A stretch of DNA of 64,000 bases, from assembly GCA_042570925.1 (NCBI GenBank), contig JBHPFX010000003.1, positions 10,149-74,148 of the forward strand, read 5' to 3'. The first letter of the stretch is position 1. Every line of letters starts with the position of its first letter. A program made the position numbers and the translations under genes. Shown one piece after another: positions 5,535 to 63,720 of this stretch. Under the pieces are notes generated by a model, which was given only the letters and a program-made list of their open reading frames with translations, was not told the origin of the DNA and did no database searches. Source of the stretch: Patescibacteria group bacterium (GTDB lineage Bacteria; Patescibacteriota; Patescibacteriia; UBA10025).

Positions 5535-5573
5535 ACGCGTATACCCAGCAATCAGGGGTGTACGCGTTTTTTT
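5535..5573 (+). terminator. Intrinsic terminator
   Basis: 10-bp stem ACGCGTATAC / GTGTACGCGT followed by a T7 run. Confidence 0.65.
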
Positions 5574-5575
5574 AT

Positions 5576-5604
5576 TTGACACAGAGTTTTTCAGAGGGTA
5601 CACT
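5576..5604 (+). promoter_or_regulatory. Promoter of the pyr operon
   Basis: TTGACA at 5576-5581, N17, TACACT at 5599-5604. The rRNA promoter at 19693 uses the same -10 box. Confidence 0.5.
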
Positions 5605-5645
5605 GCATGTATACATATGACTTACATCTTTAGTCCATCTGATGA

Positions 5646-7078
<1,433 letters not shown>

Positions 7079-8005
7079 ATGAGTGTAAGTCTCTCAATAC
7101 AGCTAGGAGGCTTAAAGCTATCAAACCCGACACTTTTAGCCTCGGGTATTTTAGGTGTGTCGAGAGCCTCGCTGAAAAATGTCATTGCGAATGGTGCAGG
7201 AGGTTGTGTGATTAAGTCAATCAGTCTGGAAGAACGTGTTGGCCATCATGCGCCGAATATGATTACGTATGAAGGCGGCATGCTCAACGCAGTTGGTTAT
7301 TCAAATCCCGGCGTGGAAGATGCAAAAAAAGAATTTACCGATTTAAAAAGTTTAGACGGGCCCGTTATCGCAAGCATTATCGGAAAAGACGCCGACGAAT
7401 TTGGTCAAATGGCTGAGCAGTTTCTCCCTGGAGATTTTTCTGCAGTTGAAGCGGTTCTTTCATGCCCGCATACTCCGGGGTACGGAACGTTGGCAGGCCA
7501 GGGTACGCCGAAGAGCACCGAAGAGATTACCAAGGCAGTTCGTTCAAGAACTGACCTGCCTTTATTTATAAAAATATCCCCTGACAGCCAGCCGATTGGT
7601 GAGATTGCCAAGGCGGCTGAATCAGCGGGTGCAGACGGAATTGTGGCGGTAAATACTATGGGCCCGGGAATGGTGATAGATATCCACACAGGTCAGCCGA
7701 TCCTTCATTTCAAGGTGGGAGGCGTGTCTGGAGCGGCCTTGCGGCCAATTGCAGTCAGATGTGTGTATGACATACGAAAGTCCGTAAAAATCCCAATTAT
7801 AGGTTGTGGAGGGGTCACGACGGGCCGGGATGCTATAGAGATGATGATGGTAGGAGCATCAGCAATAGAAATCGGCACGGCTATTTACTACCGCGGTGTC
7901 GATGTGTTTAAGAAAGTCTGTGATGAAATTGAACAGTATATGGATCAAAAAGGTCATACAAAGCTTGAGGATTTTATTGGCCAAACTCATAAACTGGAAG
8001 ACTAA
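7079..8005 (+). CDS. pyrD: Dihydroorotate dehydrogenase, class 1B catalytic subunit
   Basis: L.NP...ASG, NAVG.SNPG, ISCPHT-like SCPHTPG and GGV..G.DA.E motifs. Followed by pyrK. Confidence 0.85.
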   Translation: MSVSLSIQLGGLKLSNPTLLASGILGVSRASLKNVIANGAGGCVIKSISLEERVGHHAPNMITYEGGMLNAVGYSNPGVEDAKKEFTDLKSLDGPVIASIIGKDADEFGQMAEQFLPGDFSAVEAVLSCPHTPGYGTLAGQGTPKSTEEITKAVRSRTDLPLFIKISPDSQPIGEIAKAAESAGADGIVAVNTMGPGMVIDIHTGQPILHFKVGGVSGAALRPIAVRCVYDIRKSVKIPIIGCGGVTTGRDAIEMMMVGASAIEIGTAIYYRGVDVFKKVCDEIEQYMDQKGHTKLEDFIGQTHKLED

Positions 8006-8823
8006 TGGAGAGAAAACTTGGTACAATCGATCAGCCGAAAATGTTTCCGATAAAACGGATTCTTGAAGAAGCAAAGGATATTAAAACTTTCTTTTTTGAT
8101 ACGCAGCTTAACTCCAGACCAGGTCAGTTTGTCATTATGTGGATTCCAAGAGTGGATGAAAAGCCATTCAGCATCGCATATGATGAGGGCGGGCAGCTGG
8201 GTTTAACAATTGCGAAAGTTGGAAGGTTTACAGAAAAACTTTACACATTTACAGAAGGCGATCTACTCGGTATACGCGGACCATATGGAGCTCCGTTTAC
8301 ATTGAAAGAGGGTTACAAAAAGATATTACTTGTTGGAGGAGGCTACGGTGTTGCACCTTTGGCAACACTCGCCTCGCAAGCACTTGATAAAAATATTGAA
8401 ATAGATTTCTGCAATGGCGCACGAACAAAAGATCTTTTACTTTTTCAAGATCGTTTAAAGAAATTAGATATCCCGGTTCATGTTTCAACAGATGATGGAA
8501 GCGAAGGGCACAAAGGTTTTGTCACAGATATCGTTGCTGACCTTTTTAAAAAAGGACAATATGATTGTGTATATACGTGTGGCCCGGAGTTAATGGAAAA
8601 AAAGGTTGTTGATTTGGCCGTAGAGGAGAATATTCCTTCTCAAGTAAGCATTGAACGGTATATGAAGTGCGGGTTTGGGATTTGCGGAGCATGTTGTGTC
8701 GACGATTCAGGTAAGCGCATGTGTGTAGAAGGTCCGGTCACTTCAGGAGAGTTCGCACTCAAGCAAAAAGAGTTTGGTGCGTATCATCGTCATGCGAGCG
8801 GGAAGAAAGAATCTTTTTCATGA
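8005..8823 (+). CDS. pyrK: Dihydroorotate dehydrogenase electron-transfer subunit
   Basis: FNR-like fold (PGQFV, GGGYGVAP) and a C-terminal 2Fe-2S motif (CGFGICGACCV). Confidence 0.85.
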   Translation: MERKLGTIDQPKMFPIKRILEEAKDIKTFFFDTQLNSRPGQFVIMWIPRVDEKPFSIAYDEGGQLGLTIAKVGRFTEKLYTFTEGDLLGIRGPYGAPFTLKEGYKKILLVGGGYGVAPLATLASQALDKNIEIDFCNGARTKDLLLFQDRLKKLDIPVHVSTDDGSEGHKGFVTDIVADLFKKGQYDCVYTCGPELMEKKVVDLAVEENIPSQVSIERYMKCGFGICGACCVDDSGKRMCVEGPVTSGEFALKQKEFGAYHRHASGKKESFS

Positions 8824-10112
8824 ACGTCAACTTACACAATTGTACGCTTGTTGATGGAAGAAAAGTAAGTATCGCTATCCGTGAGGGGAAGATTAATGAA
8901 ATTAGTGAGACGGTTTCAGTCTTTGATCAAGAAATAGATATTGGCGGGAAAATGGTTATTCCTGGAATTATCGATACTCATGTTCATTTTAGAGAACCAG
9001 GCGGCGAACAAAAGGAGGACTGGTCGACCGGTTCTGAGGCAGCAGCAGCTGGAGGTGTCACAACAGTCATAGACATGCCAAATACTGATCCGCCAACGAT
9101 TGATTCAAAAACATTAGAGAAAAAAAGAAAGCTTGCGGAAAAGAGCTTAGTAAATTACGGATTTTTTCTCGGGGCAACAAAAGATAATCTGAAAGAAATC
9201 AAAAAAGCTCGTAACATTGCCGGAGTAAAAGTATATGTGGGCTCTTCTACGGGCAATCTATTGGTTTCAGAAGACGATGATTTAGAAAATCTGTTTACCA
9301 TTCCAAATATTCAATGGGTCATTCACGCAGAGGATGAGCCGATCATTTTACAGAATCAAATAAAATTCTCTTCAGACGACTCTCCGTCAGTTCATTCAAA
9401 AATTCGCGAGCGGTCTGCAGCGATTAAAGCTGTTGAAAGGATTATCGTATTAAGTAAAAAAACCGGCGCGCGTATTCATATTTGCCATGTAAGCACTCAG
9501 GAGGAGGTTGAGCTTATTCAAGAAGCAAAGGGAGAAGGCGTGTTTATAACATGCGAAGTAAGTCCCCATCATCTTTTTCTCACTGATCAATATTATTTTC
9601 AAAGAGGAAATTTTGCCAAAGTAAATCCCCCGCTTAGGACGGTGGAAGATACGAAGAAGTTATTTGAAGCATTAGAGATGGGAATTATCGATACGATAGC
9701 CACTGATCACGCTCCTCACACTATTCAAGAAAAAGAACAGGAGTACTCAAAAGCCCCATCAGGCTTACCAGAAGTCCAGACTTCGCTGCCGCTCATGCTT
9801 AATGAAGTTTCAAAAGGGACAATTTCTCTACAAAGAGTTGTAGAAATAATGTCAGAAAAACCTGCCAAACGTTTCCATATACAAAATAAAGGGAAAATTG
9901 CAGAAGGATACGATGCAGATCTAACTGTGATTGATCTGAACAAAAAGCAGAAAGTAGCTCAGGGCATGTTAAGAAGCAAATGCGGCTGGTCACCATATGA
10001 GGGACAAGAAATCACTGGTTGGCCAATTATGACGTTTGTGAACGGGAATCTCATTTTCAATAACAAAACAATTAACAAAGAATATAAAGGAAAGGAAGTA
10101 ATATATGAATAA
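8820..10112 (+). CDS. pyrC: Dihydroorotase
   Basis: DTHVHFREPG, HAED and ATDHAPH motifs. I prefer ATG 8820 (MNVNLHNC), which overlaps the pyrK stop (ATGA), over the track start at 8721. Confidence 0.85.
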   Translation: MNVNLHNCTLVDGRKVSIAIREGKINEISETVSVFDQEIDIGGKMVIPGIIDTHVHFREPGGEQKEDWSTGSEAAAAGGVTTVIDMPNTDPPTIDSKTLEKKRKLAEKSLVNYGFFLGATKDNLKEIKKARNIAGVKVYVGSSTGNLLVSEDDDLENLFTIPNIQWVIHAEDEPIILQNQIKFSSDDSPSVHSKIRERSAAIKAVERIIVLSKKTGARIHICHVSTQEEVELIQEAKGEGVFITCEVSPHHLFLTDQYYFQRGNFAKVNPPLRTVEDTKKLFEALEMGIIDTIATDHAPHTIQEKEQEYSKAPSGLPEVQTSLPLMLNEVSKGTISLQRVVEIMSEKPAKRFHIQNKGKIAEGYDADLTVIDLNKKQKVAQGMLRSKCGWSPYEGQEITGWPIMTFVNGNLIFNNKTINKEYKGKEVIYE

Positions 10113-50554: not shown

Positions 50555-51487
50555 ATGCCCTCAAAACTCCAAAATTATATTACACAGTATCTCGAGTATC
50601 TTGAGATAGAAAAAAACAAATCCCCTTTAACTGTAAGGAATTATGAATTTTATCTGCGAAGATTCCTTACATGGGGCCAATTAAAAAATCCGGAAGACAT
50701 CACGCTTGAGAAAGTACGACAGTATCGCCTGTTTCTCAACCGTCTTAAAAGCCAGCGAAAAGAATTCGTAAAAAAATCAACGCAAAATTATCATCTCATT
50801 GCCCTTCGATCGTTTTTAAAATATTTAGCGCGTAATGATGTAACAACACTTGCTCCTGAGAAAATTGAACTTGCAAAGATCTCCGAACGCCAAGTTTCAT
50901 TTCTTGAAGGAGATGATCTGGAGCGTTTTCTCGAAGCTCCGTTGAAATCAAAAGAGTCAGAAATTATTCAGCAGCGTGATAAAGCACTTTTAGAACTACT
51001 ATTTTCTACTGGATTGCGTGTATCAGAGCTCGCCTCCTTACAACGCGATTCGATCAATCTTACAAAGGATGAATTCACCGTGCGCGGAAAAGGCGGAAAA
51101 CTACGAGTGGTTTTTCTTTCAAACCAATCGAAGCATTGGATAAAAAAATATCTGGCGACACGGAAAGATGATGCTTCACCACTTTTTTTACGACATGACC
51201 GGGCAGCAGCTTCTGAAAAAGATCCGAAATCAATTACCTCAAGGTCCATTCAGCGAATAGTTGAAAGTTATGCAAAGCAGGCAGGCATTACAAAAAAAGT
51301 CACCCCGCATACACTGCGCCACAGTTATGCGACTGATCTTCTCATGAACGGAGCTGATATTCGCTCGGTACAATCAATGCTCGGGCATGCCTCAATTACT
51401 ACCACACAGATTTATACTCATATAACTAATCAGCAGCTGCGAGACGTGTATAAGGCGTTTCATGCTCGAAGAAGAAAAAAGGAATGA
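50555..51487 (+). CDS. Tyrosine site-specific recombinase (XerC/XerD-like)
   Basis: N-terminal SAM-like domain (YLEYLEIEKN.SPLTV.NY). Catalytic R (GLRVSEL), HTLRHSYAT, GH and the TQIYTH tyrosine. Confidence 0.85.
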   Translation: MPSKLQNYITQYLEYLEIEKNKSPLTVRNYEFYLRRFLTWGQLKNPEDITLEKVRQYRLFLNRLKSQRKEFVKKSTQNYHLIALRSFLKYLARNDVTTLAPEKIELAKISERQVSFLEGDDLERFLEAPLKSKESEIIQQRDKALLELLFSTGLRVSELASLQRDSINLTKDEFTVRGKGGKLRVVFLSNQSKHWIKKYLATRKDDASPLFLRHDRAAASEKDPKSITSRSIQRIVESYAKQAGITKKVTPHTLRHSYATDLLMNGADIRSVQSMLGHASITTTQIYTHITNQQLRDVYKAFHARRRKKE

Positions 51488-53032: not shown

Positions 53033-53104
53033 GGTGACTATGGTGTAGTGGTAGCACAGGGGCCTGTGAAGCCCTTAGCTCGGGTTCAAATCCCGATAGT
53101 CACC
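53033..53104 (+). tRNA. tRNA-His (anticodon GUG) with encoded G-1
   Basis: G-1 + GTGACTA acceptor, GTGTAGTGGTAGCAC D arm, CTGTGAA loop, TCGGGTTCAAATCCCGA T arm, TAGTCAC-C. No CCA encoded. Confidence 0.85.
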
Positions 53105-53210
53105 CCCGCCCACCTCTTTTGTGATTTTTTTGAATTTACTTGCGTGCTTTGGCGGGCAGGGATGACCTGCTCTGAGCGTGGCCCGCCGTAGGCGGGAGAA
53201 GCCGAAGAGA

Positions 53211-53363
53211 GCCTTTAGCTCGGGTTCGAGCCCCGATAGCGACCTTTTTCTCTGAGCATTGTGTTCGAAGAAAAAGGAAAAAACATCTCCTATTCATTGT
53301 GAGGTGTTTTTGGTTCCAGAAAAGAGGTATACTATATTTAGATAATCATTAGAATAAATATGT
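53211..53363 (+). repeat. Composite intergenic element, copy 1 (starts with a long tRNA-His 3'-half-like segment)
   Basis: GCCTTTAGCTCGGGTTCGAGCCCCGATAGCGACC, hairpin 53243-53277, terminator CATCTCC..GAGGTG plus T run, then the GGTATACT promoter. Confidence 0.7.
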
Positions 53364-54743
53364 ATGATTAATCAAAGAGGATTCATTAGTGCAACATTGG
53401 TTGTCATTATTGTAGTGCTCGCAGTTTTTATGGTTGGAGTTGCTTGGTATTATGAGGAGAATAAGGAAGAAATCAGTTCGGAGACAGTAAATACTCCGAT
53501 TAATTCGAATAGCAATATTAATTCATCAATACTTCATAATACTAATTCGATAGCTTCGAATGAACTTTTTCCGAAAGTGGCATATTTAGATTCAGGTAAT
53601 ATATATTCATTAAGTTTGTCATATGCAGACGTACAACTACTTGTTTCAAATGCAACGCCAATCATTGAATACGATATTTCTGATAATGGTCAGCATATTA
53701 TATATCTTGTAGCTAGCGATAATGAAAGCGAGATACATTATTATAACGTTTTGGATGAAAATGATTCCGTAGTATTGAAGGAAACAAATGTTTATTATCA
53801 TAGTATTGCGTTGTCGCCAGATAATACAAAAATTGCATATGCAAAAAAGAATTTCAACAGCTCAGTGAATAAATTTCTTAATCAAGCAATTTATGTAAGC
53901 GACCTTAATGGTAATGATGAGAACAAAATAGTAGATATTGGAAAGACTGAGGATGAAGTTAGTGAATATTACGGTAATGATGTCTGTGAATGGTCAAATG
54001 ACTCCAATCTTATTGGGCTTGAAAAGTGGTCCCCAGAGAGTGATTATTTAGTTTATTATATAAATGATAACTATGAATGTAGTGGTCCAGGGCATTCAAT
54101 AATACACATTACTGATTTGAATGGTAATGAAAGCTTTTTTGATGAACATTTGCCAAATCCAGGGACATATATATTTAATGAAGAAGAAAGGGAGTGGAGC
54201 GCTGCGGATATTTTTTGGCAGACTTTTTCTTCGGATAATGGTGACTTTATTCTTAAACAGCGAGCAGGTATGCCCTTTGTAAATAGTAGAGTAGTATTTG
54301 TCAAGGATGGTGAGGTGGTATCCGCATTTAATACTGTTGATTACCAAGATGACGAATATCAAAATAATACCCAAAGGCTTAGATCACACTATGAATATGG
54401 ATTTGACGTAGTTGGATGGGATGAAAGAATTAGTTATTTTGGGGGTAGGGCAGGTGAACCTGGTACTAATGAAGTGATAAAGACAAACATTGCCGGAGGA
54501 AATATTATTCAGTTAACCAATACTGAGGATGATTTGGCATTTACTCACCCAATAGTAATTGATGATGAGTATGTACTTTTTAGAAGGTATAATATAGATC
54601 CAGTTACTAATCAATACGGAAATACGTCTAGTTCTAAATCAGATACGTATGATATTTTAGTAAAGAATGTTGAAAATAATGAAGAAACTATTATTACTGA
54701 GGGGGCAGCTTTTAATCTGTTGAAGATTTACAGGTTGGAATGA
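53364..54743 (+). CDS. Pilin-signal-like anchored surface protein, family member 1 (C-terminal TolB/beta-propeller-like repeats)
   Basis: MINQRGFISATLVVIIVVLAVFMVGVAWYYEENKEE, an Asn/Ser-rich linker, then repeats such as DISDNGQHIIYL and IALSPDNTKIAYA. Confidence 0.6.
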   Translation: MINQRGFISATLVVIIVVLAVFMVGVAWYYEENKEEISSETVNTPINSNSNINSSILHNTNSIASNELFPKVAYLDSGNIYSLSLSYADVQLLVSNATPIIEYDISDNGQHIIYLVASDNESEIHYYNVLDENDSVVLKETNVYYHSIALSPDNTKIAYAKKNFNSSVNKFLNQAIYVSDLNGNDENKIVDIGKTEDEVSEYYGNDVCEWSNDSNLIGLEKWSPESDYLVYYINDNYECSGPGHSIIHITDLNGNESFFDEHLPNPGTYIFNEEEREWSAADIFWQTFSSDNGDFILKQRAGMPFVNSRVVFVKDGEVVSAFNTVDYQDDEYQNNTQRLRSHYEYGFDVVGWDERISYFGGRAGEPGTNEVIKTNIAGGNIIQLTNTEDDLAFTHPIVIDDEYVLFRRYNIDPVTNQYGNTSSSKSDTYDILVKNVENNEETIITEGAAFNLLKIYRLE

Positions 54744-54792
54744 TTGTTACTTTTTTTGGGTTGATTTGATCATATTGAATCGCTTAGATAGG

Positions 54793-54987
54793 TTTGACAT
54801 ATACCCAAAATCACCAAAAACTCCCATAAGATTAGTTAAAATAACGTACCGATAGCCACCTTTTTCTCTGAGTATTAGATTCGGAGCAAAAGGAAAAGAC
54901 ATCTTCCCCACACCATATAATGGTGTGTGGGAGAGGTGTTTTTGTTAGAGAAATGGTATAATGAATATATAAAATTAATATAATAAA
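54793..54987 (+). repeat. Composite intergenic element, copy 2
   Basis: Box A, CCGATAGCCACC, hairpin 54859-54893, long terminator hairpin 54898-54943, TGGTATAAT extended -10. Confidence 0.7.
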
Positions 54988-55701
54988 ATGCAAATAGCAG
55001 ATAATAAGAAGTTAAAAAAGCATCCCCTTGATTATGCGATAAAATCATCTCGTGTCATAGCCACAATTATCCTTTTTTATGGATTTATGATGGGCTTGGC
55101 AATTGGTTTTTTCGGTATCCCTCTAAACATTACCGTTTATGGTACATCAATTTCTGGATTTATTCCCTACCTTATCGCCATAGTAATAGCTGTAGCCTCA
55201 TTCATTTTATATCCAATATTATTAAAAAAGAAGTATCCTGGCATTAAAACAAATATATATACTATTGGAAAATTAAAAACGCACGTTGGATTATTAACCC
55301 TTATCGCAGGCGGAGCTGGTTTCGTCTTAGCATTATGGGCATATATTCTTCTTTTTATCAAAACATCAGATAATACCTCCATCAATGAATTTCTATATTA
55401 CCCAAACTATGCAACTAAAATTGCATTTATACCTATAATTGCCTCGGTTTATTTTTCTTTTCTTAAAAAAATAATATCTCACTCCCTAAAAGCAATCGAG
55501 CTTGTTTTTCTTGTTTTTTCTACAATCCTGTTAATTATGGTGGCTGCTTTCATTTCTTTTGTGGGCATCAGTAATTCAATGATTGAAAACTGGTGGTTAC
55601 TCATTCCTGACTTGATTGCCGGAGGCTCATCATATACTTTTGCTATGTTCTTTTTGCTAAAATTTAGGCCCACGGAAAATATACAGTCTTCAAGCACTTA
55701 A
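54988..55701 (+). CDS. Hypothetical multi-pass membrane protein
   Basis: Six or so hydrophobic segments. No motif. Confidence 0.5.
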   Translation: MQIADNKKLKKHPLDYAIKSSRVIATIILFYGFMMGLAIGFFGIPLNITVYGTSISGFIPYLIAIVIAVASFILYPILLKKKYPGIKTNIYTIGKLKTHVGLLTLIAGGAGFVLALWAYILLFIKTSDNTSINEFLYYPNYATKIAFIPIIASVYFSFLKKIISHSLKAIELVFLVFSTILLIMVAAFISFVGISNSMIENWWLLIPDLIAGGSSYTFAMFFLLKFRPTENIQSSST

Positions 55702-55780
55702 TAATTGGAGCACTAAAGTTCGAAAACTATCAAATTCAAACAATAAGAACTCTGAACAGTTATTCCTATTGAGCAATACT

Positions 55781-56791
55781 TTAATTGGCTCCTGTAAAGC
55801 TAAAACTTTCGACTACTTCTGTAAAAATCTGCTCCGCAGTTTGTTGAACATCAGCGCCATACAATACGCTAATCTCAAATATTATTGATCCTTCTCCCTG
55901 AGGGCTGTTTATTGTGTCAGTGTTATATATAACCGTCGAATAATTGATAGGTGAATCAGGTGTTTGTTCAGTACCGCTCAGTTTCTTTGCTGCATAGCCG
56001 CCTAAAGTTGAACTTGTTTCACTAGTTAAACTACGAGAATAGTCACCAGAGCTATTAAAATTTGGGCTAGTATATTCATCTTGAGTATCTAACATAACAC
56101 TAATAGACATACAATCTGCGGGTATTGAAAAAATCTCAAAACTTCTAATTAAGCAATCCTCACTTGAGTAATACGTTCTATTGGCGTCATAAATTGACAC
56201 TGTACTTTCAAGGCCTGATTCGCTCAAGTCTAAAAAATATAAATTATCAGGGTACTCAAAAGAAAAACTATAATCATCATTAGTATATGTTAACCAATTA
56301 TCCAGCATCGTGTTTGTTAATTGGGTATTGGTGCTTTCAGTAGAATTTACATTACTTGTATTTATATTATCTATATTTTCATTAATATTTCTAACAAGTT
56401 GGGTATTTGTATTATCTGCAAATAAATTTTCGTTAAGATTCCCTAAGTTAATATTACTATTCTGATTAACTAAAGAATTAACATTAGAGACAGGGGTGTT
56501 TTTTATTACAACACCCTCCGTTTTATTATCTTTATTGAAAAACAAAAAATATACTGCTAAACCAGCTAAGATAACAAATACAACAACTACGATTATAATT
56601 AGTGTGGACTTATTACTAGCGCTTACCGTCACATTTGGCTGTCTAGCACTTTTCTGGACGTCAGATGGATTTAATATTTCAGAAATCATTTCTCGAGTAT
56701 AACCCTGAGCCAATAATTTTTCGGTAATTTGTTCATCTGTTAAGCCAGCAGCCCTTGCCTGCTCTAACCATTGTTTAATTGCATCATTCAT
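55781..56791 (-). CDS. Membrane-anchored surface protein with the N-terminal helical module, an Asn-rich linker and a unique C-terminal domain
   Basis: MNDAIKQWLEQARAAGLTDEQITEKLLAQGYTREMISEIL is about half identical (by eye) to the N-terminus of 23943-26717. TM, then an NVNSLVNQNSNINLGN.. linker. Confidence 0.6.
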   Translation of the reverse strand: MNDAIKQWLEQARAAGLTDEQITEKLLAQGYTREMISEILNPSDVQKSARQPNVTVSASNKSTLIIIVVVVFVILAGLAVYFLFFNKDNKTEGVVIKNTPVSNVNSLVNQNSNINLGNLNENLFADNTNTQLVRNINENIDNINTSNVNSTESTNTQLTNTMLDNWLTYTNDDYSFSFEYPDNLYFLDLSESGLESTVSIYDANRTYYSSEDCLIRSFEIFSIPADCMSISVMLDTQDEYTSPNFNSSGDYSRSLTSETSSTLGGYAAKKLSGTEQTPDSPINYSTVIYNTDTINSPQGEGSIIFEISVLYGADVQQTAEQIFTEVVESFSFTGAN

Positions 56792-56825
56792 AGTTTATAT
56801 ATTTAGTAATCTAACATCCTTTATT

Positions 56826-57010
56826 AAGCTTACCATATACCCAAAATCCTCCAAAACCTTAACAAACTCAGACTTTTTAGTTAAACTAACCTTATCCCTC
56901 GACTCGTTCCACTTGCTCGGGACAGGCGGTAGCGACCTTTTTCTCTGAGCATTTAAGTTCGAAGAAAAAGGAAAAGACATCTCCCCTTATGAGGGAGGTG
57001 TTTTTGGTAT
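56826..57010 (+). repeat. Composite intergenic element, copy 3 (+ orientation between two minus-strand genes)
   Basis: Box A, a G+C tract, GGTAGCGACC, hairpin 56936-56971, terminator 56976-57005. Confidence 0.65.
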
Positions 57011-57013
57011 TAT

Positions 57014-57337
57014 TTATTCGCTACTCAACGCTACAATAATCAAAGTTATAAATGCAAGTACTATTAAAGAAAAATATATAGCAAGTCTACTAATAATTTT
57101 TCCTTTAGACGTATTTTTTTTAGTTTTATAAAGGCTGATAATACCTAGAACAAGAGGTATGAAAAAAGAGATTATAATTAAGTCTATTCGGAGAACTTCT
57201 GATATGTCCATCATAAACAAAATAAAGTTCGTTCCGGCAATTAGAAATAAAACAAAAGCAATAATTGCTAATTTGTTAAATTTCTTCTTTGGTTGTTCTG
57301 ACTGTGGCGCTGGTTGTTGTTTTGTTAGTTCTTCCAT
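57014..57337 (-). CDS. Hypothetical small 3-TM membrane protein
   Basis: Hydrophobic segments only. Confidence 0.45.
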   Translation of the reverse strand: MEELTKQQPAPQSEQPKKKFNKLAIIAFVLFLIAGTNFILFMMDISEVLRIDLIIISFFIPLVLGIISLYKTKKNTSKGKIISRLAIYFSLIVLAFITLIIVALSSE

Positions 57338-57370
57338 ATTTATATCTTTAGTGACTTAATCTCCTGCATT

Positions 57371-57560
57371 AAGTCTACCACATACCTAAAATCCCCTAAA
57401 ACCCTCATAAGATTAGTTAAAATAACGTACCGATAGGGACCTTTTTCTCTGAGCATTGTGTTCGAAGAAAAAGGAAAAAACATCTCCTATTCATTGTGAG
57501 GTGTTTTTGGTTCCAGAAAAGAGGTATACTATATTTAGATAATCATTAGAATAAATATGT
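57371..57560 (+). repeat. Composite intergenic element, copy 4
   Basis: Box A, CCGATAGGGACC, hairpin 57440-57474. Identical to copy 1 from 57438 onward. Confidence 0.7.
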
Positions 57561-58358
57561 ATGATTAATCAAAGAGGATTCATTAGTGCAACATTGGTTG
57601 TCATTATTGTAGTGCTCGCAGTTTTTATGGTTGGAGTTGCTTGGTGGTATGAGGAGAATAAAGAGGAGGTTGCAAATACTCAGGTTGTTAGTAACGAATC
57701 TATTGAAAACAATTCTGTAAATGTGAAGAATTCGAATGCAATAAATTCTAATGCAGCAACGAATACTAATTTCGTTTCCAACACCAATTCAACTACTAAT
57801 GTAAACACAAACGTTACCTCAGATAGTGGCAATAACTGGCGCACAGTTAATTATAATAAAAACGATTTGAGTTTTTTAATCAGCGTTCCTGCTGACTGGA
57901 GAGAAGAAACCAGCCTCTATAATCCACCACGAGAAAGATATTCTTTGATTAGTTATACTTGGCCGCCAGAAAGTGGCGTTACTCAATATCTCAGATTAAT
58001 TGTCAGATATTTTATAAATGATGAAGCCTCATTAAAGGAGTGGGTTGATAAGCACGAAACACATCTCCGAGAAGGTGAACAAAATCATAATCGTCTAACA
58101 GAACTTACTTTGAGCGAAATAACAGTTAATGGAGAGTTAGGATATGCATATGACGCTGATTATAAAAGAACAATTGGCGAGTGGGATGATGAAGGAAATT
58201 ACGTTGGAACTAAAATTGAGCATAAATCATACAAATATATTAATTTTCAAAAAGATAATAAAATTTATCAAATTTATATTGGTGGTGATAATAATCTCGT
58301 AATCGATAATCAGGATTTAATTATTGAAATTATTGACTCCTTTAATTTTCTCGAATAA
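57561..58358 (+). CDS. Pilin-signal-like anchored surface protein, family member 2
   Basis: The first 28 aa are identical to 53364-54743. AWWYEENKEE, an Asn/Thr-rich linker, and an unrelated C-terminal domain. Confidence 0.6.
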   Translation: MINQRGFISATLVVIIVVLAVFMVGVAWWYEENKEEVANTQVVSNESIENNSVNVKNSNAINSNAATNTNFVSNTNSTTNVNTNVTSDSGNNWRTVNYNKNDLSFLISVPADWREETSLYNPPRERYSLISYTWPPESGVTQYLRLIVRYFINDEASLKEWVDKHETHLREGEQNHNRLTELTLSEITVNGELGYAYDADYKRTIGEWDDEGNYVGTKIEHKSYKYINFQKDNKIYQIYIGGDNNLVIDNQDLIIEIIDSFNFLE

Positions 58359-58550
58359 GTCTACCATATACCTGAAATCCCCTAAAACACCCATAAGGTT
58401 AGTACAAATAAGCGACCCCTTCGGCTTCGCTCAGGGCAGGCCGATAGGGACCTTTTTCTCTGAGCATTTACGTTCGGAGCAAAAGGAAAAGACATCTCTC
58501 AGGTTATGAGAGGTGTTTTTTTATAATAGAATAATGCTATAATTTAATAT
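58359..58550 (+). repeat. Composite intergenic element, copy 5
   Basis: Starts right after the stop codon. Box A, CTTCGGCTTCGCTCAGGGCAGGCCGATAGGGACC, hairpin 58451-58486, terminator, then TGCTATAAT 7 nt before the ATG. Confidence 0.7.
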
Positions 58551-58997
58551 ATGAAATTCATTTCTTCATTGCTCATACTCGTATCTAGTATAGCCGGCGG
58601 CATCTTTTTGGCTAGGCTGATAAAGAATAAAATAACTGATTTCAAAAAATACGGAGTCTTGTTTATTATTTATTCATTTGTAAATATTGCACTCCTTGGC
58701 TTAAGTGAGAAGACTCAAGTATTAATAATAGATATATATGTTGCGTGGACTATCGCCTTTGCAGCACTTATTATTTTTTTAATTCTTGTTCGAAAACAAC
58801 CAAGTATAAAAAAAATATTAAGCTTACGAGAAAATGTGAGTTATGAGTGGAGTAAAGATGCTAAGTTATTTCAGAAGGTGATCATACGGCTATCCACTGT
58901 TGGAGCACTTTATGGAGTAATTATATTAGCTTATTTTGACTTATTCGGGATTGTAATTGCGATTATTGAAGTATTAAAGAGAGTTAATCTTATTTGA
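58551..58997 (+). CDS. Hypothetical 4-TM membrane protein (possibly a leaderless mRNA)
   Basis: Hydrophobic segments. The -10 box ends 7 nt before the ATG. Confidence 0.45.
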   Translation: MKFISSLLILVSSIAGGIFLARLIKNKITDFKKYGVLFIIYSFVNIALLGLSEKTQVLIIDIYVAWTIAFAALIIFLILVRKQPSIKKILSLRENVSYEWSKDAKLFQKVIIRLSTVGALYGVIILAYFDLFGIVIAIIEVLKRVNLI

Positions 58998-59082
58998 TTA
59001 CAAACATCTCCCTTTTTGAAGAAGTGTTTTTGGTTGGGAAAAAGAGTATAATATATTTAGATAATCATTCAAATATATACCT
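58998..59082 (+). repeat. Composite element, short form (terminator and promoter modules only)
   Basis: ACATCTCCC..GAAGTGTTTTTGG, then AGAGTATAATATATTTAGATAATCATT. Confidence 0.55.
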
Positions 59083-60147
59083 ATGAATTATCAAAAGGGT
59101 TTTACTCATTGGGTAGTTGTAATTCTCATTTCTGTTATAGCTGTGGGTTTGGTCGGTGCAGCTTGGTATTATGAGGAGAATAAGGAAGAAGTAACCACTA
59201 CGACCAATACAGGCACTATCAATGTAAATACAAATATTGTACCCACTAATTCAGCAGTAAACACCAATACAGCTGTAAATGTAAATAGTTCTACAAACAC
59301 GAACACTGTAATTGATGAAACTGATGATTGGCAAGTACATAGAGATGATTTTAGATACGGCTTTACGTTTAAGTATCCAACTGATTGGGAATTTAGCTTT
59401 ACAGACCAATTAGATAAGTCTGAAATTTTATTTAGAGTATCAAATTCAAATGGCTCAAAATTTGACGTGCTACCATTAGGTGACTTTGATTTTGAATTGA
59501 GCGAAATAATTACATCAGAGACAGTAATAATTGATGGTCAATCAGCACAGAAAACCGTTTATAAAGACTCACCAAATTATGAAATATATTCCATAATCGA
59601 CTATGAATTAAATGAGTGGACATCCTCTAATAGGATTGAGCTTATTCCAACTAATGAAGCAGATGCTGAAATTCTTCAAAATATTCTTTCTACATTCGAA
59701 TTCCTCCAAGACACCTCTGATTGGTTGACGTATACGAATGATGAGTATGGGTATTCTATTAGCTACCCCAATGACTGGACCACAACGTCAACTCTAGCAA
59801 GTCCTGGTTCCATCGGTATCTACGCGCCAAGCGATTCTGCGCATATAACCATTGTTCCCGACTACGGTATCAACACTCTTGGCTTCGACGCTCTCACACA
59901 ATCCACTACACAAACAATATTAGGCGGGGAAGCAGTCACTCAGGTCACTTGGCGAGATGCAGATGGGATGCTAGAGCACTGTTCATACCAATTTGAGCAG
60001 TCACCAAATGAAAGCTGGGTACCCGCTGTGGTGACCAACGAAATACATACGACTACAGAGACTCCACCAGGTAATTTCATCAATTACGAATGTGCGGATG
60101 AAGTGACGGTTCCACAAATCCTCTCCACTTTCCAATTCACCGATTAG
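59083..60147 (+). CDS. Pilin-signal-like anchored surface protein, family member 3
   Basis: MNYQKGFTHWVVVILISVIAVGLVGAAWYYEENKEE, a Thr/Asn-rich linker, and two related C-terminal repeats (DDWQVHRDD..YPTDWEF / SDWLTYTNDEYGYSISYPNDWTT). Confidence 0.6.
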   Translation: MNYQKGFTHWVVVILISVIAVGLVGAAWYYEENKEEVTTTTNTGTINVNTNIVPTNSAVNTNTAVNVNSSTNTNTVIDETDDWQVHRDDFRYGFTFKYPTDWEFSFTDQLDKSEILFRVSNSNGSKFDVLPLGDFDFELSEIITSETVIIDGQSAQKTVYKDSPNYEIYSIIDYELNEWTSSNRIELIPTNEADAEILQNILSTFEFLQDTSDWLTYTNDEYGYSISYPNDWTTTSTLASPGSIGIYAPSDSAHITIVPDYGINTLGFDALTQSTTQTILGGEAVTQVTWRDADGMLEHCSYQFEQSPNESWVPAVVTNEIHTTTETPPGNFINYECADEVTVPQILSTFQFTD

Positions 60148-60189
60148 TACCACAATCTAGCTCAGTACTTGTTTACTTTCGTGTAGTAG

Positions 60190-60395
60190 CTTTCTGGTAT
60201 ACCTAAAATCCCTTAAAACCTTTATAAGATTAGTACAAATAAGCGACCCCTTCGGCTTCGCTCAGGGCAGGCCGATAGGGACCTTTTTCTCTGAGCACTT
60301 ATGTTCGGAGCAAAAGGAAAAGACATCCTCCCTTTTATAAGAGGAGGTGTTTTTGGTAAGAAAGTGATATAATATATCTAACTTAATGAATTACT
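60190..60395 (+). repeat. Composite intergenic element, copy 7
   Basis: Box A and a G+C tract identical to copy 5. Hairpin 60282-60317, terminator, TGATATAAT. Confidence 0.7.
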
Positions 60396-60872
60396 ATGAC
60401 TTTAGATAAACAGACAAATCAAACATTAAATCCATCTTCGAAAAAACCAATAACACTTAAACCGATTATTGCCATATTAATACTTGTTAGTATAGTAAAT
60501 TTATTTTCATTCTTTACTATTGGAGGGTGCAAATACTCACTCATTAACCTTCATATTAATGAGGTGGTACCTACAGATACCATAATTGAGTTTGAGTGTT
60601 CAGGATTAAATGTTAATGGAGAATACTCTGGGAGGGATTTTACAATTGAAGGTACGGCTAATCCAAGTTTTGCTTTTGGAAAATCAAATATAAACATTAT
60701 TGGCAATACTCAGGATGGTAACCAATATGAAGTAAGCGCATACACTCGTTATAATACAATTGGTATTTTTCTAGGTCTATCATTATATTCTTGGCCGATA
60801 TTAATAGTTGTATTAGTAGTCTTACTAATAGTGAATATAAGTAGAAGGAGAATTAAGTCAACAGATTTATAA
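60396..60872 (+). CDS. Hypothetical protein with N- and C-terminal TM segments
   Basis: Hydrophobic ends around a beta-rich middle. No motif. Confidence 0.45.
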   Translation: MTLDKQTNQTLNPSSKKPITLKPIIAILILVSIVNLFSFFTIGGCKYSLINLHINEVVPTDTIIEFECSGLNVNGEYSGRDFTIEGTANPSFAFGKSNINIIGNTQDGNQYEVSAYTRYNTIGIFLGLSLYSWPILIVVLVVLLIVNISRRRIKSTDL

Positions 60873-60899
60873 TAAAATTTGTTTTACTTCTTTCAATAA

Positions 60900-61100
60900 A
60901 ACTCTCGTACACCCAAAATCACCTAAAACACCCATAAGATTATTTAATATAACCTTACCCTTCAACTTCCCCTTCGATTCGCTCAGGGCGGGGCCGATAG
61001 GGACCTTTTTCTCTGAGCATTATGTTCGGAGCAAAAGGAAAAGACATCTCTCTATTCAAGAGAGGTGTTTTTGATTTAAGAAAAGGAGTATACTACAAGT
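60900..61100 (+). repeat. Composite intergenic element, copy 8
   Basis: Box A, CCCTTCAACTTCCCCTTCGATTCGCTCAGGGCGGGGCCGATAGGGACC, hairpin 61004-61038, terminator, promoter. Confidence 0.7.
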
Positions 61101-61748
61101 ATGAATGATTCAATTTCCTATACAATTACCTCCTCTGAATTTGCTAAGAGATTAGAGGCTACAAAATATCGGTTGGTTCCTGTTTTTATCTTTATCATTA
61201 TTGGTCTGGCAGCTTACGCATTCATCGACTCAGGTAGCAGCACTGCAATCTCAGTTCTTGTCGTTGGACTAATATTTATCGTTGCAGGAATAATTAAAAT
61301 TCGATTTCAAAAACCCTCCACAACTAAAATTGATGTTGAAATTAACAGAAATGGTATTACGATTAAAAAGGATAAAGTAATTCAGTATGATTGGAAAGCA
61401 TTTAAGAAAGTTATGACTAGTACTGAATATGTTAAAAGCTATTCTCCAACTTTTTTCAATAGTTTTGGTTTTGAAAGATTATTTTATACTTCTGCACAAG
61501 TCTCAGAAGAAACTCACGGAAGAGTTTTTTATTTGATTTTTAAGAAAGGATCCTCTCTTTATGGTCATCAACATCTGATAGTATATGCTGAGCCCGATAA
61601 CTATCAGGAAGTTGAAAACTTATTACATAAATACCTGCCGCATCCTCAGGAGGCCACTCCAGTAAATAAATTGAAGAATTTCTTAATAGGACTTGCTTTT
61701 GTAGTGATTGCTATCGGACTGGTAGCTTTAATATTTATTATAGTATAG
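61101..61748 (+). CDS. Hypothetical membrane protein (two N-terminal TM segments, a soluble domain, a C-terminal TM)
   Basis: Hydrophobicity pattern only. Confidence 0.45.
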   Translation: MNDSISYTITSSEFAKRLEATKYRLVPVFIFIIIGLAAYAFIDSGSSTAISVLVVGLIFIVAGIIKIRFQKPSTTKIDVEINRNGITIKKDKVIQYDWKAFKKVMTSTEYVKSYSPTFFNSFGFERLFYTSAQVSEETHGRVFYLIFKKGSSLYGHQHLIVYAEPDNYQEVENLLHKYLPHPQEATPVNKLKNFLIGLAFVVIAIGLVALIFIIV

Positions 61749-61845
61749 ATACAATAATCGAAGAAAAGACATCTCCCCTTTTGAGCGAAGTCCCGAACCC
61801 TTTATGTGGTGAGGGAGGAGGTGTTTTTGGTTTTACATATGAATG
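61749..61845 (+). repeat. Composite element, terminator module with a G+C-rich insert in its loop
   Basis: GACATCTCCCC, then the insert TTTTGAGCGAAGTCCCGAACCC.., then GGGAGGAGGTGTTTTTGG. Confidence 0.5.
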
Positions 61846-62175
61846 TTACCTAAAGCATGAACAAGGCTTGTTGCGAAGTATATATACCTGACGGTTTGGT
61901 TTATCAATAAATTTTTTTTGGATTCTTACGCCTATCGCCTTTGTATACTCAAGAGGCGTCAAATGGCAGTAGCCCCGTCTTTTCATCTCGAGGACGAGTT
62001 TTTCATGGCGCATATAGAGAGCTTTGAGCTTTCCTATCCAGCGTTGCGTCTCGGGGTGATTGCGGTACCCGCATTTGTTTTTTGTGAGTATCGACCATAC
62101 GGCGTGCAACTCCCGGTGCTCTCCTAAGAGATGCTGTCTACATAATTTTTTTGGTGCGATATCCCAAATACGCAT
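61846..62175 (-). CDS. Pyrimidine-dimer DNA glycosylase (T4 endonuclease V / DenV family)
   Basis: MRIWDIAPKKLCRQHLLGEHRELHAVWSIL....GYRNHPETQRW matches the family pattern M R.W..P..L....L..E.RE, including the catalytic Glu context. Confidence 0.75.
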   Translation of the reverse strand: MRIWDIAPKKLCRQHLLGEHRELHAVWSILTKNKCGYRNHPETQRWIGKLKALYMRHEKLVLEMKRRGYCHLTPLEYTKAIGVRIQKKFIDKPNRQVYILRNKPCSCFR

Positions 62176-62254
62176 AGAGAAGTAGTATACTAACGAACAA
62201 TTATTAAATCAAAAACACTTCTGTTATTCAAAAAGTGTTTTTGAAAGTCTGAAA

Positions 62255-62548
62255 TTACTTCACGTGTTCTGATACTGCACCTGGGTACATTTGTGCAAGA
62301 TCGCTGACCAAGTCACCAAATGTCATGCCGTCAACACCATGTGCTGCAGGCATACCCATACCGTTTCCACCCATGTTGCTCACGTGTTCAGAGATTACTC
62401 CAGGTTCGAGACTTGAAACCATCATACCAAATGTTTTCCCGTCAACACCATGTGCTGCAGGCATACCCATAGCTACTACTGGAGTGGCAACGAGTGCACC
62501 GAGTCCAAAGATGAATGAGAAGATTAATGCTTTTTTCATGAAGTTCAC
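62255..62548 (-). CDS. Small secreted protein with an internal tandem duplication
   Basis: Signal peptide, then two copies of MGMPAAHGVDG[KM]TFG..VS.L....[AV][IV]SEHV. Confidence 0.5.
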   Translation of the reverse strand: MNFMKKALIFSFIFGLGALVATPVVAMGMPAAHGVDGKTFGMMVSSLEPGVISEHVSNMGGNGMGMPAAHGVDGMTFGDLVSDLAQMYPGAVSEHVK

Positions 62549-62687
62549 CTCCTTTCATACGTAGATAATTTTCATCACTATTCTGTATGCCAAGTGTACT
62601 CGACACCTGAAATTCGGTCGGTATGCAAAAACACAAAAAGATGTGTATTCACATCTTTTTGTAATATTTACTTACTATTATTTGATC

Positions 62688-63479
62688 TTATACAGGACGG
62701 AGCGTGCCAGCAAATACCTGCCATGCGAGCAATGATTTTGCCACAAGGCTTAAAATAATATACGCACGTTCGCCATACAGGTAATCTCGCCACTTGCCGA
62801 CTTTTTTGTACTGCAAGATCATATTAATGGCAAAAGAATTGAAGAAGAGGAATATTGAGAAATAAATCCAGTATACGAACGCTGGCGCTTTATTATCTCC
62901 CTCACCTGCCAAAAACAGGTAAAAACCAACGACCACCCAGGGAATAGCTCCTGCTAATATTCCAAACCAGTATGATGTCCAATTGGTTTTTTCAGTTCTC
63001 TGATTGTGAAGCTCCATCATCCAGCCAAATAAAATCATCATCATATTGAGAAAGAATATCATCAGCAGACCAAGTCCGTCATAAAGACCAACGAGCATTG
63101 CAATAATTACAATCATCAAGGAAGAGCTAAACGCGTATTCTATCCAACGAGCTTTATTAATTCCTATTTTCAAATTGGCCACATATTTTTTATAACCGGC
63201 TGGCAATGAAATGAATAGATGAGCTAAAGCAGATATAAATAAGAACGCAGCCACCAGCGGCCCTATTTGGACGGAGAATTCTGTTTGTAATACTGGTTCT
63301 AATTTTAGTGTGATCGTATTCATTTCCACGAAGGCTGATGTAACTGGAAGCGAGAAATCAGAGCTTAAAAACAGCATCAGAAATCCCTGAATGGCATGCA
63401 TTACCGCCATAATGACATTAAAACGCCTTAATTTTGGAAACTTTGTGTCTTCGATAAATTGTTGATTTTGTTCTTCCAT
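62688..63479 (-). CDS. Heliorhodopsin
   Basis: Collinear with heliorhodopsin 48C12 as I recall it: RWIEYAFSSSLMIVIIA, MILFGWMME, FLFFNSFA, YLYGERAYIILSLVAKSLLAWQVFAGTL, including the retinal Lys in SLVAKS. Seven TM segments. Confidence 0.85.
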   Translation of the reverse strand: MEEQNQQFIEDTKFPKLRRFNVIMAVMHAIQGFLMLFLSSDFSLPVTSAFVEMNTITLKLEPVLQTEFSVQIGPLVAAFLFISALAHLFISLPAGYKKYVANLKIGINKARWIEYAFSSSLMIVIIAMLVGLYDGLGLLMIFFLNMMMILFGWMMELHNQRTEKTNWTSYWFGILAGAIPWVVVGFYLFLAGEGDNKAPAFVYWIYFSIFLFFNSFAINMILQYKKVGKWRDYLYGERAYIILSLVAKSLLAWQVFAGTLRPV

Positions 63480-63524
63480 AGTTATGAATTTAATAATTTA
63501 ATCTTATTGTTTAATTCTAGCATA

Positions 63525-63720
63525 TATGAAAAATCAGCAAAAACCCTCATAAGATTAGTTAAAATAACCATACCCTTCGACTTCCCCTTCGATTCGCTAC
63601 GCTCACTCAGGATTCGCTCAGGGCGGGGCCGATAGGGACCCCATCAAAAAATCATCCTACAGATATGTTCTTAGGGTGGTTTTTTGTTTGAGAAAAATGC
63701 TACAATACATTCAGATAATT
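63525..63720 (+). repeat. Composite intergenic element, copy 10 (lacks the 35-nt hairpin)
   Basis: Box A remnant CCCTCATAAGATTAGTTAAAATAA, a long G+C tract ending GGCCGATAGGGACC, terminator CATCCTA..TAGGGTG plus T run, TGCTACAAT. Confidence 0.6.

Follow-up and report, generated by a model that had tools for sequence, protein, structure and literature searches.

The 64,000-nucleotide stretch of DNA analysed here (the window), from an ultra-small CPR bacterium of the Patescibacteria, carries a heliorhodopsin (HeR) gene followed on the same strand by a gene for a short DenV-type protein, a relative of T4 endonuclease V (T4 endoV), and the same order and orientation recur at other HeR loci. The arrangement in the window is best explained as a loosened copy of this recurrent pair, which would serve as a sunlight/UV-damage module, an explanation that we hold, as a whole, to be reasonably probable. 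Since heliorhodopsins were discovered in 2018 their physiological role has stayed open and, to our knowledge, the partners with experimental support are few: glutamine synthetase, CPD photolyase and an ABC transporter. The features of the block and its edges are as follows.

61763–61861, plus strand: incomplete array-element copy on the DenV side of the block (repeat families D6, D9).
61846–62175, minus strand: DenV-type Pyr_excise protein with a T4 endonuclease V fold, 109 aa (Pfam, AF2, Foldseek).
62184–62212, minus strand: promoter-like site, TTGATT, 17 nt, TATACT (consensus scan, a pattern match only).
62209–62244, minus strand: hairpin downstream of the small ORF (fold −14.4 kcal/mol, z = −2.7).
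62255–62539, minus strand: small conserved protein, 94 aa, with His/Met/Gly-rich repeats (NCBI ACFL0L_01625).
62632–62663, minus strand: hairpin like an intrinsic terminator, directly behind the HeR stop (pattern scan, fold).
62688–63479, minus strand: heliorhodopsin gene, 263 aa, with Lys248, Glu114, His28 and His87 (Pfam, NCBIfam, ~58% identity to TaHeR, 6IS6).
63459–63640, plus strand: array-element copy just upstream of HeR (repeat analysis).

An earlier note, made from the DNA letters, had called 62688–63479 a clear heliorhodopsin, and the searches bear this out. The product covers the whole of Pfam PF18761 (profile positions 1–242 of 242; E = 3e-99; 331.7 bits, cut-off 26.7) and scores 339 bits against the NCBIfam HeR equivalog NF038020 (cut-off 100). 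The alignment with TaHeR from a Thermoplasmatales archaeon (PDB 6IS6; E = 2e-83, ~58% identity) spans the full length, all checked residues of the chromophore pocket being conserved; a difference is that the host here is bacterial (CPR). SLVAKS of the window protein pairs with SLVAKS of 6IS6, and RWIEY with RWFEY. The Schiff-base Lys248, within S244-L-V-A-K248, falls on the SLVAK of TaHeR, the SxxxK motif of helix 7, and E114 falls on the Glu of RWFEY, where the 7CLJ entry has D in place of the E of 6IS6. The retinal-binding residues, proposed earlier from the SLVAKS motif, are thus present on careful alignment to a solved HeR, together with the counterion, and S244, K248, H28, H87 and E114 are invariant across an alignment of 40 HeR relatives. 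We take E114 to be the single helix-3 counterion and H28/H87 to be the His pair of the proton-accepting group, as in the literature on 48C12 and TaHeR. The gene encodes an intact, full-length heliorhodopsin, and ~58% identity to a solved HeR suggests that the protein would have an inverted membrane topology, bind retinal and have a slow photocycle. Its SxxxK motif is the one given for CPR HeRs (PMC9166423). The earlier note had seen no retinal-synthesis genes in the window, and a tblastn search with the carotenoid genes of the relative L004 gave no match there. A partial membrane-protein ORF lies upstream of HeR on the plus strand.

The main support for the pair comes from other genomes. A DenV-family gene is present at 7 of 158 non-redundant HeR loci, the window included, or 7 of the 146 with 450 bp or more of DNA downstream. 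A search of the six-frame ORFs from 165 HeR loci with the DenV HMM gave six matches, every one lying directly downstream of HeR and co-oriented with it. At all seven loci DenV lies on the HeR strand, one or two genes downstream, and no DenV gene was found elsewhere in ~2 Mb of HeR flanks. The gaps outside the window are 3, 3, 12, 30, 83 and 315 nt. The enrichment of DenV near HeR, which the earlier note had proposed to look for, was indeed found; it is strong and tied to position, with five gaps of 3–83 nt. HeR partners have been assigned to operons where the genes share a strand and the intergenic distance is <10 bp (Bulzu et al. 2021); the 3-nt gaps of L007 and L086 fall below this limit and the 12-nt gap of L010 lies close to it. 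L141 holds HeR and DenV as a standalone two-gene unit with opposite-strand genes on both sides, and appears Chloroflexota-like (closest HeRs from Dehalococcoidia, GC 58%); the remaining head-to-tail pairs with gaps of 3–83 nt are in Patescibacteria. With random placement over ~24 gene-by-strand slots per locus, and the window excluded, the chance of finding six of six DenV genes in the first or second downstream slot is estimated at ~1e-6 or less; the adjacency across loci is far above chance.

Unbiased clustering of HeR neighbours retrieved the known published partners, which validates the method, and placed DenV (7 loci) among the ABC transporter (12), MerR/B12 (10), SDR (8), MsrA (7) and photolyase (6) clusters. 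DenV was the sole cluster of fixed position and strand over diverse loci. When the first gene downstream was classified by Pfam, Pyr_excise shared first place (4 loci), followed by photolyase (3), DenV thus being about as frequent beside HeR as photolyase, in a common downstream slot. The rate is 6/32 in the HeR subclade of the window vs 1/114 elsewhere. The distribution is patchy within the HeR clade and spans two phyla and different contexts. DenV is also missing from L097, whose HeR shares 90% identity with the L019 protein. In both families such pairing is confined to a minority, as none of three contexts of DenV homologs contains HeR. Divergence of the two proteins is weakly coupled (Mantel r = 0.57, p = 0.007), a signal driven by the close pair L007/L086, and DenV identity plateaus at 54–64%, since roughly half of the 109 residues do not vary. 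A claim of independent acquisitions of the pair was dropped, since the Mantel signal and the plateau fit one origin or several.

In the window itself the pair is less tight. DenV had been placed on the same strand 0.5 kb downstream of HeR, and the minus-strand ORFs agree, with 512 nt separating the stop of HeR from the start of DenV. The two genes share a strand but, with this distance and with a gene and a terminator between them, fall outside the operon definition given above. The hairpin behind HeR has a 14-bp stem and a 4-nt loop followed by a U-run (−16.5 kcal/mol, z = −5.9), and none of 200 shuffles was equally stable. The hairpin behind the small ORF is similar to those found in the array element (repeat families D14, I3). 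The promoter-like site ends 9 nt before the DenV ATG and would yield a nearly leaderless DenV transcript; such matches are not enriched over shuffles. As a strong terminator follows HeR, a gene is inserted and DenV has a separate promoter-like site, co-transcription has probably been lost in the window while the linkage persists.

The small protein between the two genes had been described as a secreted His/Met-rich repeat protein starting at 62548. It is real and conserved (77 homologs; identical to the NCBI hypothetical protein ACFL0L_01625) and has two His/Met/Gly-rich repeats of 33–35 aa (GMPAAHGVDG.TFG...SEHV, repeat family D13). The 94-aa form identical to the NCBI protein starts at the ATG at 62539, with GGAGGTG 6 nt 5' of it, and the suggestion of secretion rests on a hydrophobic N-terminus that looks like a signal peptide by eye. 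No Pfam family matches the protein. The ORF is a lineage-specific insertion between HeR and DenV. The idea that it is a third component of the module was discarded, the ORF being missing from all 165 other HeR loci, with homologs in unrelated gene contexts.

The variable array described earlier around the block is also real. About eight copies of a 190–240-nt element carrying a sequence like the 3' end of tRNA-His lie between 53.2 and 63.64 kb of the window, beside tRNA-His and a XerC-like integrase (tyrosine recombinase, 50555–51487), and the block of HeR, small ORF and DenV is bounded by two of them. A copy also precedes HeR in the relatives L001 and L006. The block thus sits in a repeat-bounded cassette array of fluid gene order, an observation that runs against a module in the window. 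HeR and DenV might then be unconnected cargo of a shuffling cassette array, adjacent incidentally and not co-regulated here, as the integrase, the bounding element copies, and the terminator, inserted gene and promoter-like site between the genes would allow. The closest HeR relatives point the same way: the four with readable downstream DNA (HeR core 86–93% identical) have different genes downstream of HeR, and no DenV within 8 kb. We nevertheless find incidental adjacency very unlikely. The order and orientation recur at the six other DenV-bearing loci, all of them free of the array and several with gaps of 3–12 nt, and both the lack of any other DenV in the HeR flanks and the estimate for random slots speak against it. 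HeR is, moreover, not a mobile cassette, because its position in the backbone (integrase, S15, NYN, PNPase) is the same in the window, L001 and L005.

The 109-aa product had been called T4 endonuclease V-like, and the description holds for family, fold and catalytic Glu. It matches PF03013 (Pyr_excise) over profile positions 1–78 of 81 at 93 bits, four times the curated cut-off (23). It has 3732 homologs, and its subfamily is spread widely over Patescibacteria, Omnitrophota, Firmicutes and archaea. Structure prediction was needed because the sequence searches of the PDB gave nothing significant: phmmer found no match even at E = 10, and a profile search with the family reached 2END at E = 0.32 beside spurious interleukin-4 matches. 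With the AF2 model (pLDDT 92.6), the top four Foldseek matches were all T4 endoV (probability 0.93–0.99, TM-score 0.61; E-value 0.07, rmsd ~5 Å), the only sensible fold matches in the PDB. The subfamily has two invariant stretches, M1-R2-x-W4-D5 and E19-H20-R21-E22. A profile alignment to 2END puts E22 in register with the catalytic E23 of T4 endoV, and E22 is invariant in both homolog alignments (A2, A3), the adjacent R21 being invariant in A3 and conserved to at least 90% in A2. On alignment to the T4 sequence, E22/R21 match E23/R22, and M1-R2 corresponds to T2-R3 with the spacing to the catalytic Glu kept. The nucleophile of T4 endoV is the α-amino group of the N-terminal Thr2 exposed by removal of Met; in the window protein the N-terminal residue would be Met, probably retained before Arg.

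The likeness to T4 endoV (DenV; PDB 2END/1VAS) and to Chlorella virus Cv-PDG accordingly comprises PF03013, the all-helical fold, the catalytic Glu, the Arg next to it and an N-terminal amine in the same register. The differences are also clear, the window protein belonging to a cellular subfamily rather than a viral one, beginning Met-Arg instead of (Met)-Thr-Arg and being 29 residues shorter than the 138 aa of T4 endoV. It stops with a conserved K-x-C-x-C, the HMM alignment ending at T4 residue 86, and is missing the C-terminal aromatic/basic segment (T4 residues ~117–138), which contacts the dimer. Cys12 and the C-terminal CxC (Cys105, Cys107) are invariant or near-invariant and several His are conserved; these are absent from T4 endoV and possibly form a metal site.

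We know of no member of the 109-aa subfamily that has been assayed biochemically, and the literature searched held no biochemical data on it. The protein might act on another lesion or be a zinc-binding DNA-binding or regulatory protein, in which case the UV-repair reading would be wrong. The modest Foldseek E-value and rmsd, the PDB sequence searches, the missing segment, the Met at the first position, the extra Cys and His and scores far short of the cut-offs of related NCBIfam models would all suit such a role. We consider it unlikely in view of the Pfam score, the fold matches confined to four T4 endoV entries, the invariant Glu with its flanking Arg and an N-terminus exactly in the register of the mature T4 amine. 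The company that the family keeps also speaks for repair: one homolog overlaps an ExoIII-family gene (L170), another lies beside a Smr gene (L173), and photolyase fills the same downstream slot at other HeR loci.

From gene order we infer a functional link between HeR and DenV, which may operate as follows. Visible light would signal that UV, the source of cyclobutane pyrimidine dimers, is also present, and the small glycosylase/AP-lyase would begin to repair these dimers by base excision. Keeping the DenV gene behind the opsin gene would favour joint expression, inheritance and transfer. In the lineage of the window, the gene for a small, putatively secreted protein would have entered between the two together with array-type signals, leaving HeR with its own terminator and DenV with its own promoter-like site. 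More speculatively, and by analogy to the HeR–photolyase complex, the cytoplasmic face of HeR in the membrane may be a binding site for the soluble glycosylase, whose activity HeR would modulate in the light; that HeR directly controls the glycosylase by light is a possibility. A stronger version, in which HeR is a light-dependent regulator or scaffold that binds the 109-aa enzyme and, on illumination, activates or releases it to give light-gated base-excision repair, seems doubtful.

The pairing could also be real and yet reflect no physical or regulatory interaction, the two genes sharing sunlit habitats and joint horizontal transfer. We regard this as a serious possibility, if somewhat short of probable. 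It would account for the patchy distribution over two phyla and different contexts, for the lack of any HeR residue separating DenV-linked from unlinked opsins, and for DenV homologs that function in many genomes without HeR; the many different neighbours of HeR, termed 'photosensory promiscuity' (PMC8612252), also suit it. Gaps of 3–12 nt, however, imply co-transcription and possibly coupled translation, which goes beyond proximity, and HeR physically binds and stimulates CPD photolyase, another enzyme acting on the same lesion (PMC9769723). Shared ecology overlaps the better-supported first half of the sunlight/UV-damage module and differs from it only on direct interaction.

The HeR–DenV pair points to a new partner, open to testing, for a photoreceptor about whose function little is known. 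A second and unrelated enzyme likely to repair CPDs, found repeatedly in an operon just behind HeR, strengthens the view that coupling of light sensing to UV repair is one core job of HeR and, if light-gating were true, control of UV-lesion repair would be a general HeR function in monoderm/CPR bacteria. The soluble partner, at 109 aa, is very small and easily assayed in a simple nicking assay, and the pair also brings into view a short, strongly conserved offshoot of the T4 endonuclease V family with a wide spread over bacteria and archaea. As minimal genomes keep such a pair, sunlight may be a real selective factor for some CPR bacteria.

Seen against published HeR neighbour sets, which comprise ten operon groups in one study (PMC11109279) and glutaredoxin, GSHPx, UvdE and photolyase as frequent neighbours in another (PMC8612252), the pair shows the type of evidence used there, i.e. 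a same-strand gene, a short gap and recurrence across taxa. It differs in that Pyr_excise/DenV is not among the groups named; the pairing is absent from the groups and the supplementary tables searched of PMC11109279 and from PMC8612252 (Table S9 aside), and the HeR-neighbourhood literature searched mentions no Pyr_excise, glycosylase or endonuclease V by HeR. The view of the earlier note that a light sensor beside a UV-lesion repair gene fits published links between HeR and photodamage repair, if with a different partner, is supported by the photolyase and UvdE precedents, including the Znf-HeRs that are flanked by UvdE and photolyase genes (PMC8612252). The closest parallel is the TfHeR/TfPHR operon of Trichococcus flocculiformis (Shim et al. 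2022, PMC9769723), where HeR likewise lies beside the gene of a CPD-removing enzyme. The genes there form one operon, whereas HeR and DenV of the window are no longer contiguous; the enzyme there is a flavin photolyase, in contrast to the chromophore-less, light-independent glycosylase/AP-lyase-type protein found here. A light-gated glycosylase would thus parallel the reported stimulation of photolyase by HeR while being mechanistically distinct from it.

The window, part of a 107.8-kb contig of Patescibacteria (CPR), holds nine tRNAs as well as a gene for 16S rRNA. Its final 2.2 kb contain three minus-strand ORFs, located where the earlier note had placed them:

62688-63479, minus strand: opsin, heliorhodopsin (HeR), 263 aa; Pfam Heliorhodopsin, full length, E=3e-99
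62255-62539, minus strand: small ORF, 94 aa; GGAGGTG 6 nt 5' of the ATG at 62539
61846-62175, minus strand: DenV-like protein (T4 endonuclease V family), 109 aa; Pfam Pyr_excise, 93 bits, cut-off 23

The opsin had been called a clear heliorhodopsin with an SLVAKS retinal lysine, and it is one: it scored 339 bits against the NCBIfam HeR equivalog (cut-off 100), and its residues 10 to 263 align with 6IS6, a heliorhodopsin structure from Thermoplasmatales (E=2e-83, ~58% identity). SLVAKS is the same in both proteins, while RWFEY in 6IS6 reads RWIEY in the window; the Glu of this motif corresponds to Asp in the 7CLJ entry. Careful alignment retained the retinal-binding residues, with H28, H87, E114, S244 and K248 invariant among 40 relatives. 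The small ORF product matches an annotated hypothetical protein at NCBI residue for residue, with 77 homologs and no Pfam family; its N-terminus is hydrophobic and it contains two His/Met/Gly-rich repeats. The earlier description of a His/Met-rich repeat protein between HeR and DenV stands, but the start is best read as the ATG at 62539 rather than 62548.

The T4 endonuclease V-like assignment of the 109-aa protein was likewise borne out, although sequence evidence by itself is thin: phmmer against the PDB gave no match, and a 51-sequence profile of the subfamily reached T4 endonuclease V at E=0.32 only. A confident AlphaFold model (59 homologs, pLDDT 92.6, pTM 0.85) was compared with the PDB in Foldseek: only T4 endonuclease V gave sensible matches, with four entries at probability 0.93-0.99 and TM-score 0.58-0.61 (~21% identity), though the E-value is only 0.07. 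The family HMM placed positions 9-72 onto 10-86 of the T4 sequence, a register also given by 2END, so that the invariant R21-E22 falls on T4 R22-E23 and the invariant M1-R2 on T2-R3 of the mature T4 protein; E23 is the catalytic Glu. The T4 enzyme has 138 aa and the window protein lacks a counterpart of its C-terminal segment; residue one is Thr in the former and Met in the latter. The window subfamily further differs in three Cys and several His residues, of which C12, C107, H15, H20, H24, H40, H57 and H71 are invariant and C105 near-invariant in the subfamily alignments. This set hints at a metal (zinc?) site, one that T4 endonuclease V is not known to have. The DenV-type family is large (>3,700 matches in Patescibacteria, Omnitrophota, Firmicutes and archaea) and very strongly conserved, at ~60-69% identity across bacterial and archaeal phyla, and a literature search found no biochemical studies of the 109-aa branch. 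The label 'DenV-type' holds for family, fold and catalytic Glu; specificity for cyclobutane pyrimidine dimers (CPDs) we infer.

HeR loci were gathered irrespective of their neighbours, 80 from species-representative genomes, 80 from metagenomes and 5 from exact-protein look-ups, giving with the window 158 deduplicated loci, 146 of them with 450 bp or more on the downstream side of HeR. A DenV-subfamily HMM run over all six-frame ORFs in ~2 Mb of HeR flanks matched exactly six genes (loci L007, L010, L017, L019, L086 and L141), all immediately 3' of HeR and co-oriented with it, with no match elsewhere in these flanks. The gap from HeR stop to DenV start is 3 nt in L007 and L086, 12 nt in L010, 30 nt in L141, 83 nt in L019 and 315 nt in L017. 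With ~24 gene-by-strand slots per locus, and the window excluded against ascertainment bias, a rough hand estimate puts the chance that six randomly placed DenV genes would all fall within the first two downstream slots at ~1e-6 or less. The pairing is non-random and operon-like in the relatives, and the neighbourhood statistics proposed earlier revealed enrichment of DenV near HeR in other genomes. DenV linkage was found in 6/32 loci (19%) of the window's HeR subclade versus 1/114 elsewhere. The pair in L141 has opposite-strand genes on either side and therefore forms a standalone two-gene unit; its HeR is nearest to Dehalococcoidia HeRs, the locus has 58% GC and its neighbours differ, so the pair is not limited to Patescibacteria.

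As a control, unbiased clustering of every ORF within 2.5 kb of HeR returned the published HeR partners, with clusters for an ABC transporter (12 loci), a MerR/B12-binding regulator (10), an SDR (8), MsrA (7), DenV (7) and photolyase (6). DenV alone among these clusters kept the same place and strand in diverse loci. When the first gene downstream was assigned to Pfam at 142 loci regardless of family, Pyr_excise was joint first (4), followed by photolyase (3). The MerR-family regulators with a B12-binding domain (LitR/CarH-like, light-responsive; L146, L030, L058, L063, L065, L067, L073, L140, L160 and L019) are mostly divergent and upstream, which agrees with the published MerR group and fits control of HeR operon transcription by light. 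An unannotated protein of ~180-200 aa, with no Pfam match, lies near HeR on the same strand in seven loci (L007 8478-9080, L010 8696-9235 and L086 8503-9048, all DenV-linked; also L020, L050, L089 and L101), six copies being upstream and one downstream, and may be a further module member.

This upstream gene argues for common descent of the L007, L010 and L086 pairs; the L141 pair sits in a different phylum-level context. The HeR-linked DenVs share 54-65% mutual identity and are not mutual best matches among the 120 closest database homologs, and since about half of the 109 positions are invariant, DenV divergence saturates quickly. HeR and DenV identities correlate (Mantel r=0.57, p=0.007), a result that rests on one close pair. 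L007, L008, L011, L013, L017 and L019 are labelled 'uncultured Gammaproteobacteria bacterium', yet their HeRs nest in the Patescibacteria HeR clade and L007 has flanking genes in common with Patescibacteria-labelled loci; the labels are probably wrong. Diderms are reported to lack HeRs.

In the window the pair is a loosened, or decayed, example of this recurrent arrangement. A 14-bp hairpin with a U-run lies directly 3' of HeR (-16.5 kcal/mol, z=-5.9), a separate Shine-Dalgarno precedes the small ORF, which is followed by a hairpin (-14.4 kcal/mol), and TTGATT, 17 nt and TATACT precede DenV, ending 9 nt from its ATG (a pattern match only); co-transcription of HeR and DenV is therefore unlikely here. 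The small ORF was ruled out as a third module member and is an insertion, because it was not found at any other HeR locus and its homologs have neighbours in unrelated contexts. A small unrelated ORF also lies in the gap in L017 (5720-5953); its product is a membrane peptide of two helices (MQKPNVLDWIVMILVVVGGLNWG…) that by eye resembles DUF378, and insertions seem to be tolerated at the junction. Among relatives whose downstream DNA could be read, the closest four (HeR cores 86-93% identical) have different genes there and no DenV within 8 kb, so the pair is easily gained or lost.

The block is embedded in the variable array noted earlier, which was resolved into ~8 direct copies of a 190-240-nt element (53210-63640) adjoining a tRNA-His and an integrase:

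50555-51487: XerC-like integrase (tyrosine recombinase)
53033-53107: tRNA-His
53210-53470, 54736-54978, 56772-57005, 57317-57580: array element, direct copies
58303-58522, 60167-60380, 60882-61105, 63459-63640: array element, direct copies
58990-59102, 61763-61861: array element, partial copies

Each copy carries a degenerate tRNA-His 3' end, a hairpin and a -10-like box, the genes between copies are mostly single and encode secreted or membrane proteins, and GC falls to 0.33-0.35. The array looks like an integron-like system or serial integrations at tRNA-His. L001 and L006 have the element once, upstream of HeR, and the window, L001 and L005 share a backbone of PNPase, NYN, S15 and integrase, with HeR 2-3 kb from the integrase in L001/L005 versus 11 kb in the window. 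The products of three array ORFs (53364-54743, 57561-58358 and 59083-60147) have an N-terminal segment that is nearly identical among them (…VGVAWWYEENKEE…), after which comes low-complexity sequence rich in Asn/Thr; the 5' regions 53233-53470 and 57430-57667 share 98% identity. These products resemble paralogous surface proteins whose bodies have been swapped.

As to the retinal source, L004, whose HeR is 88% identical to that of the window, has at 2-7 kb downstream of this gene a carotenoid cluster (3750-8859; phytoene synthase, polyprenyl synthase, CrtI-like amino oxidase and lycopene cyclase), which is unusual in a CPR-type genome. No homologs of these genes were found in the window, in agreement, for the carotenoid part, with the earlier statement that no retinal-synthesis genes are visible there.

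In most genomes the DenV-type enzyme clearly functions in the absence of HeR, and no HeR residues specific to DenV-linked opsins were found. Two DenV homolog contexts fit a repair role: in L173 an Smr gene precedes the homolog, and in L170 the homolog overlaps an ExoIII-family gene. In the latter (Komeilibacteria, 3243-5091) the homolog begins within the end of a DUF1295 gene and runs into the start of the Exo_endo_phos (ExoIII/AP-endonuclease family) gene, with a TspO gene 1 kb upstream, plausibly a glycosylase and AP-endonuclease repair operon.

HeR was already known from CPR bacteria (PMC9166423), and so was its linkage to genes for UV repair, namely those for photolyase and UvdE. The main texts of the neighbourhood studies PMC11109279 and PMC8612252 name no Pyr_excise/DenV partner, nor do the searched supplements of PMC11109279, and no HeR-DenV pairing appeared in literature joining 'heliorhodopsin' with 'glycosylase' or 'pyrimidine dimer'. 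The pairing should be moderately surprising to a specialist and is directly testable. It would represent a sunlight/UV module in which a CPD-excising enzyme is co-expressed and co-inherited with a light sensor. As the earlier note had anticipated, this fits the published links between HeRs and photodamage repair, with a different partner: in the direct precedent, TfHeR has a Kd of 21.7 uM for CPD class II photolyase and makes this enzyme about 3-fold more active (PMC9769723), and Znf-HeRs are flanked by UvdE and photolyase genes (PMC8612252).
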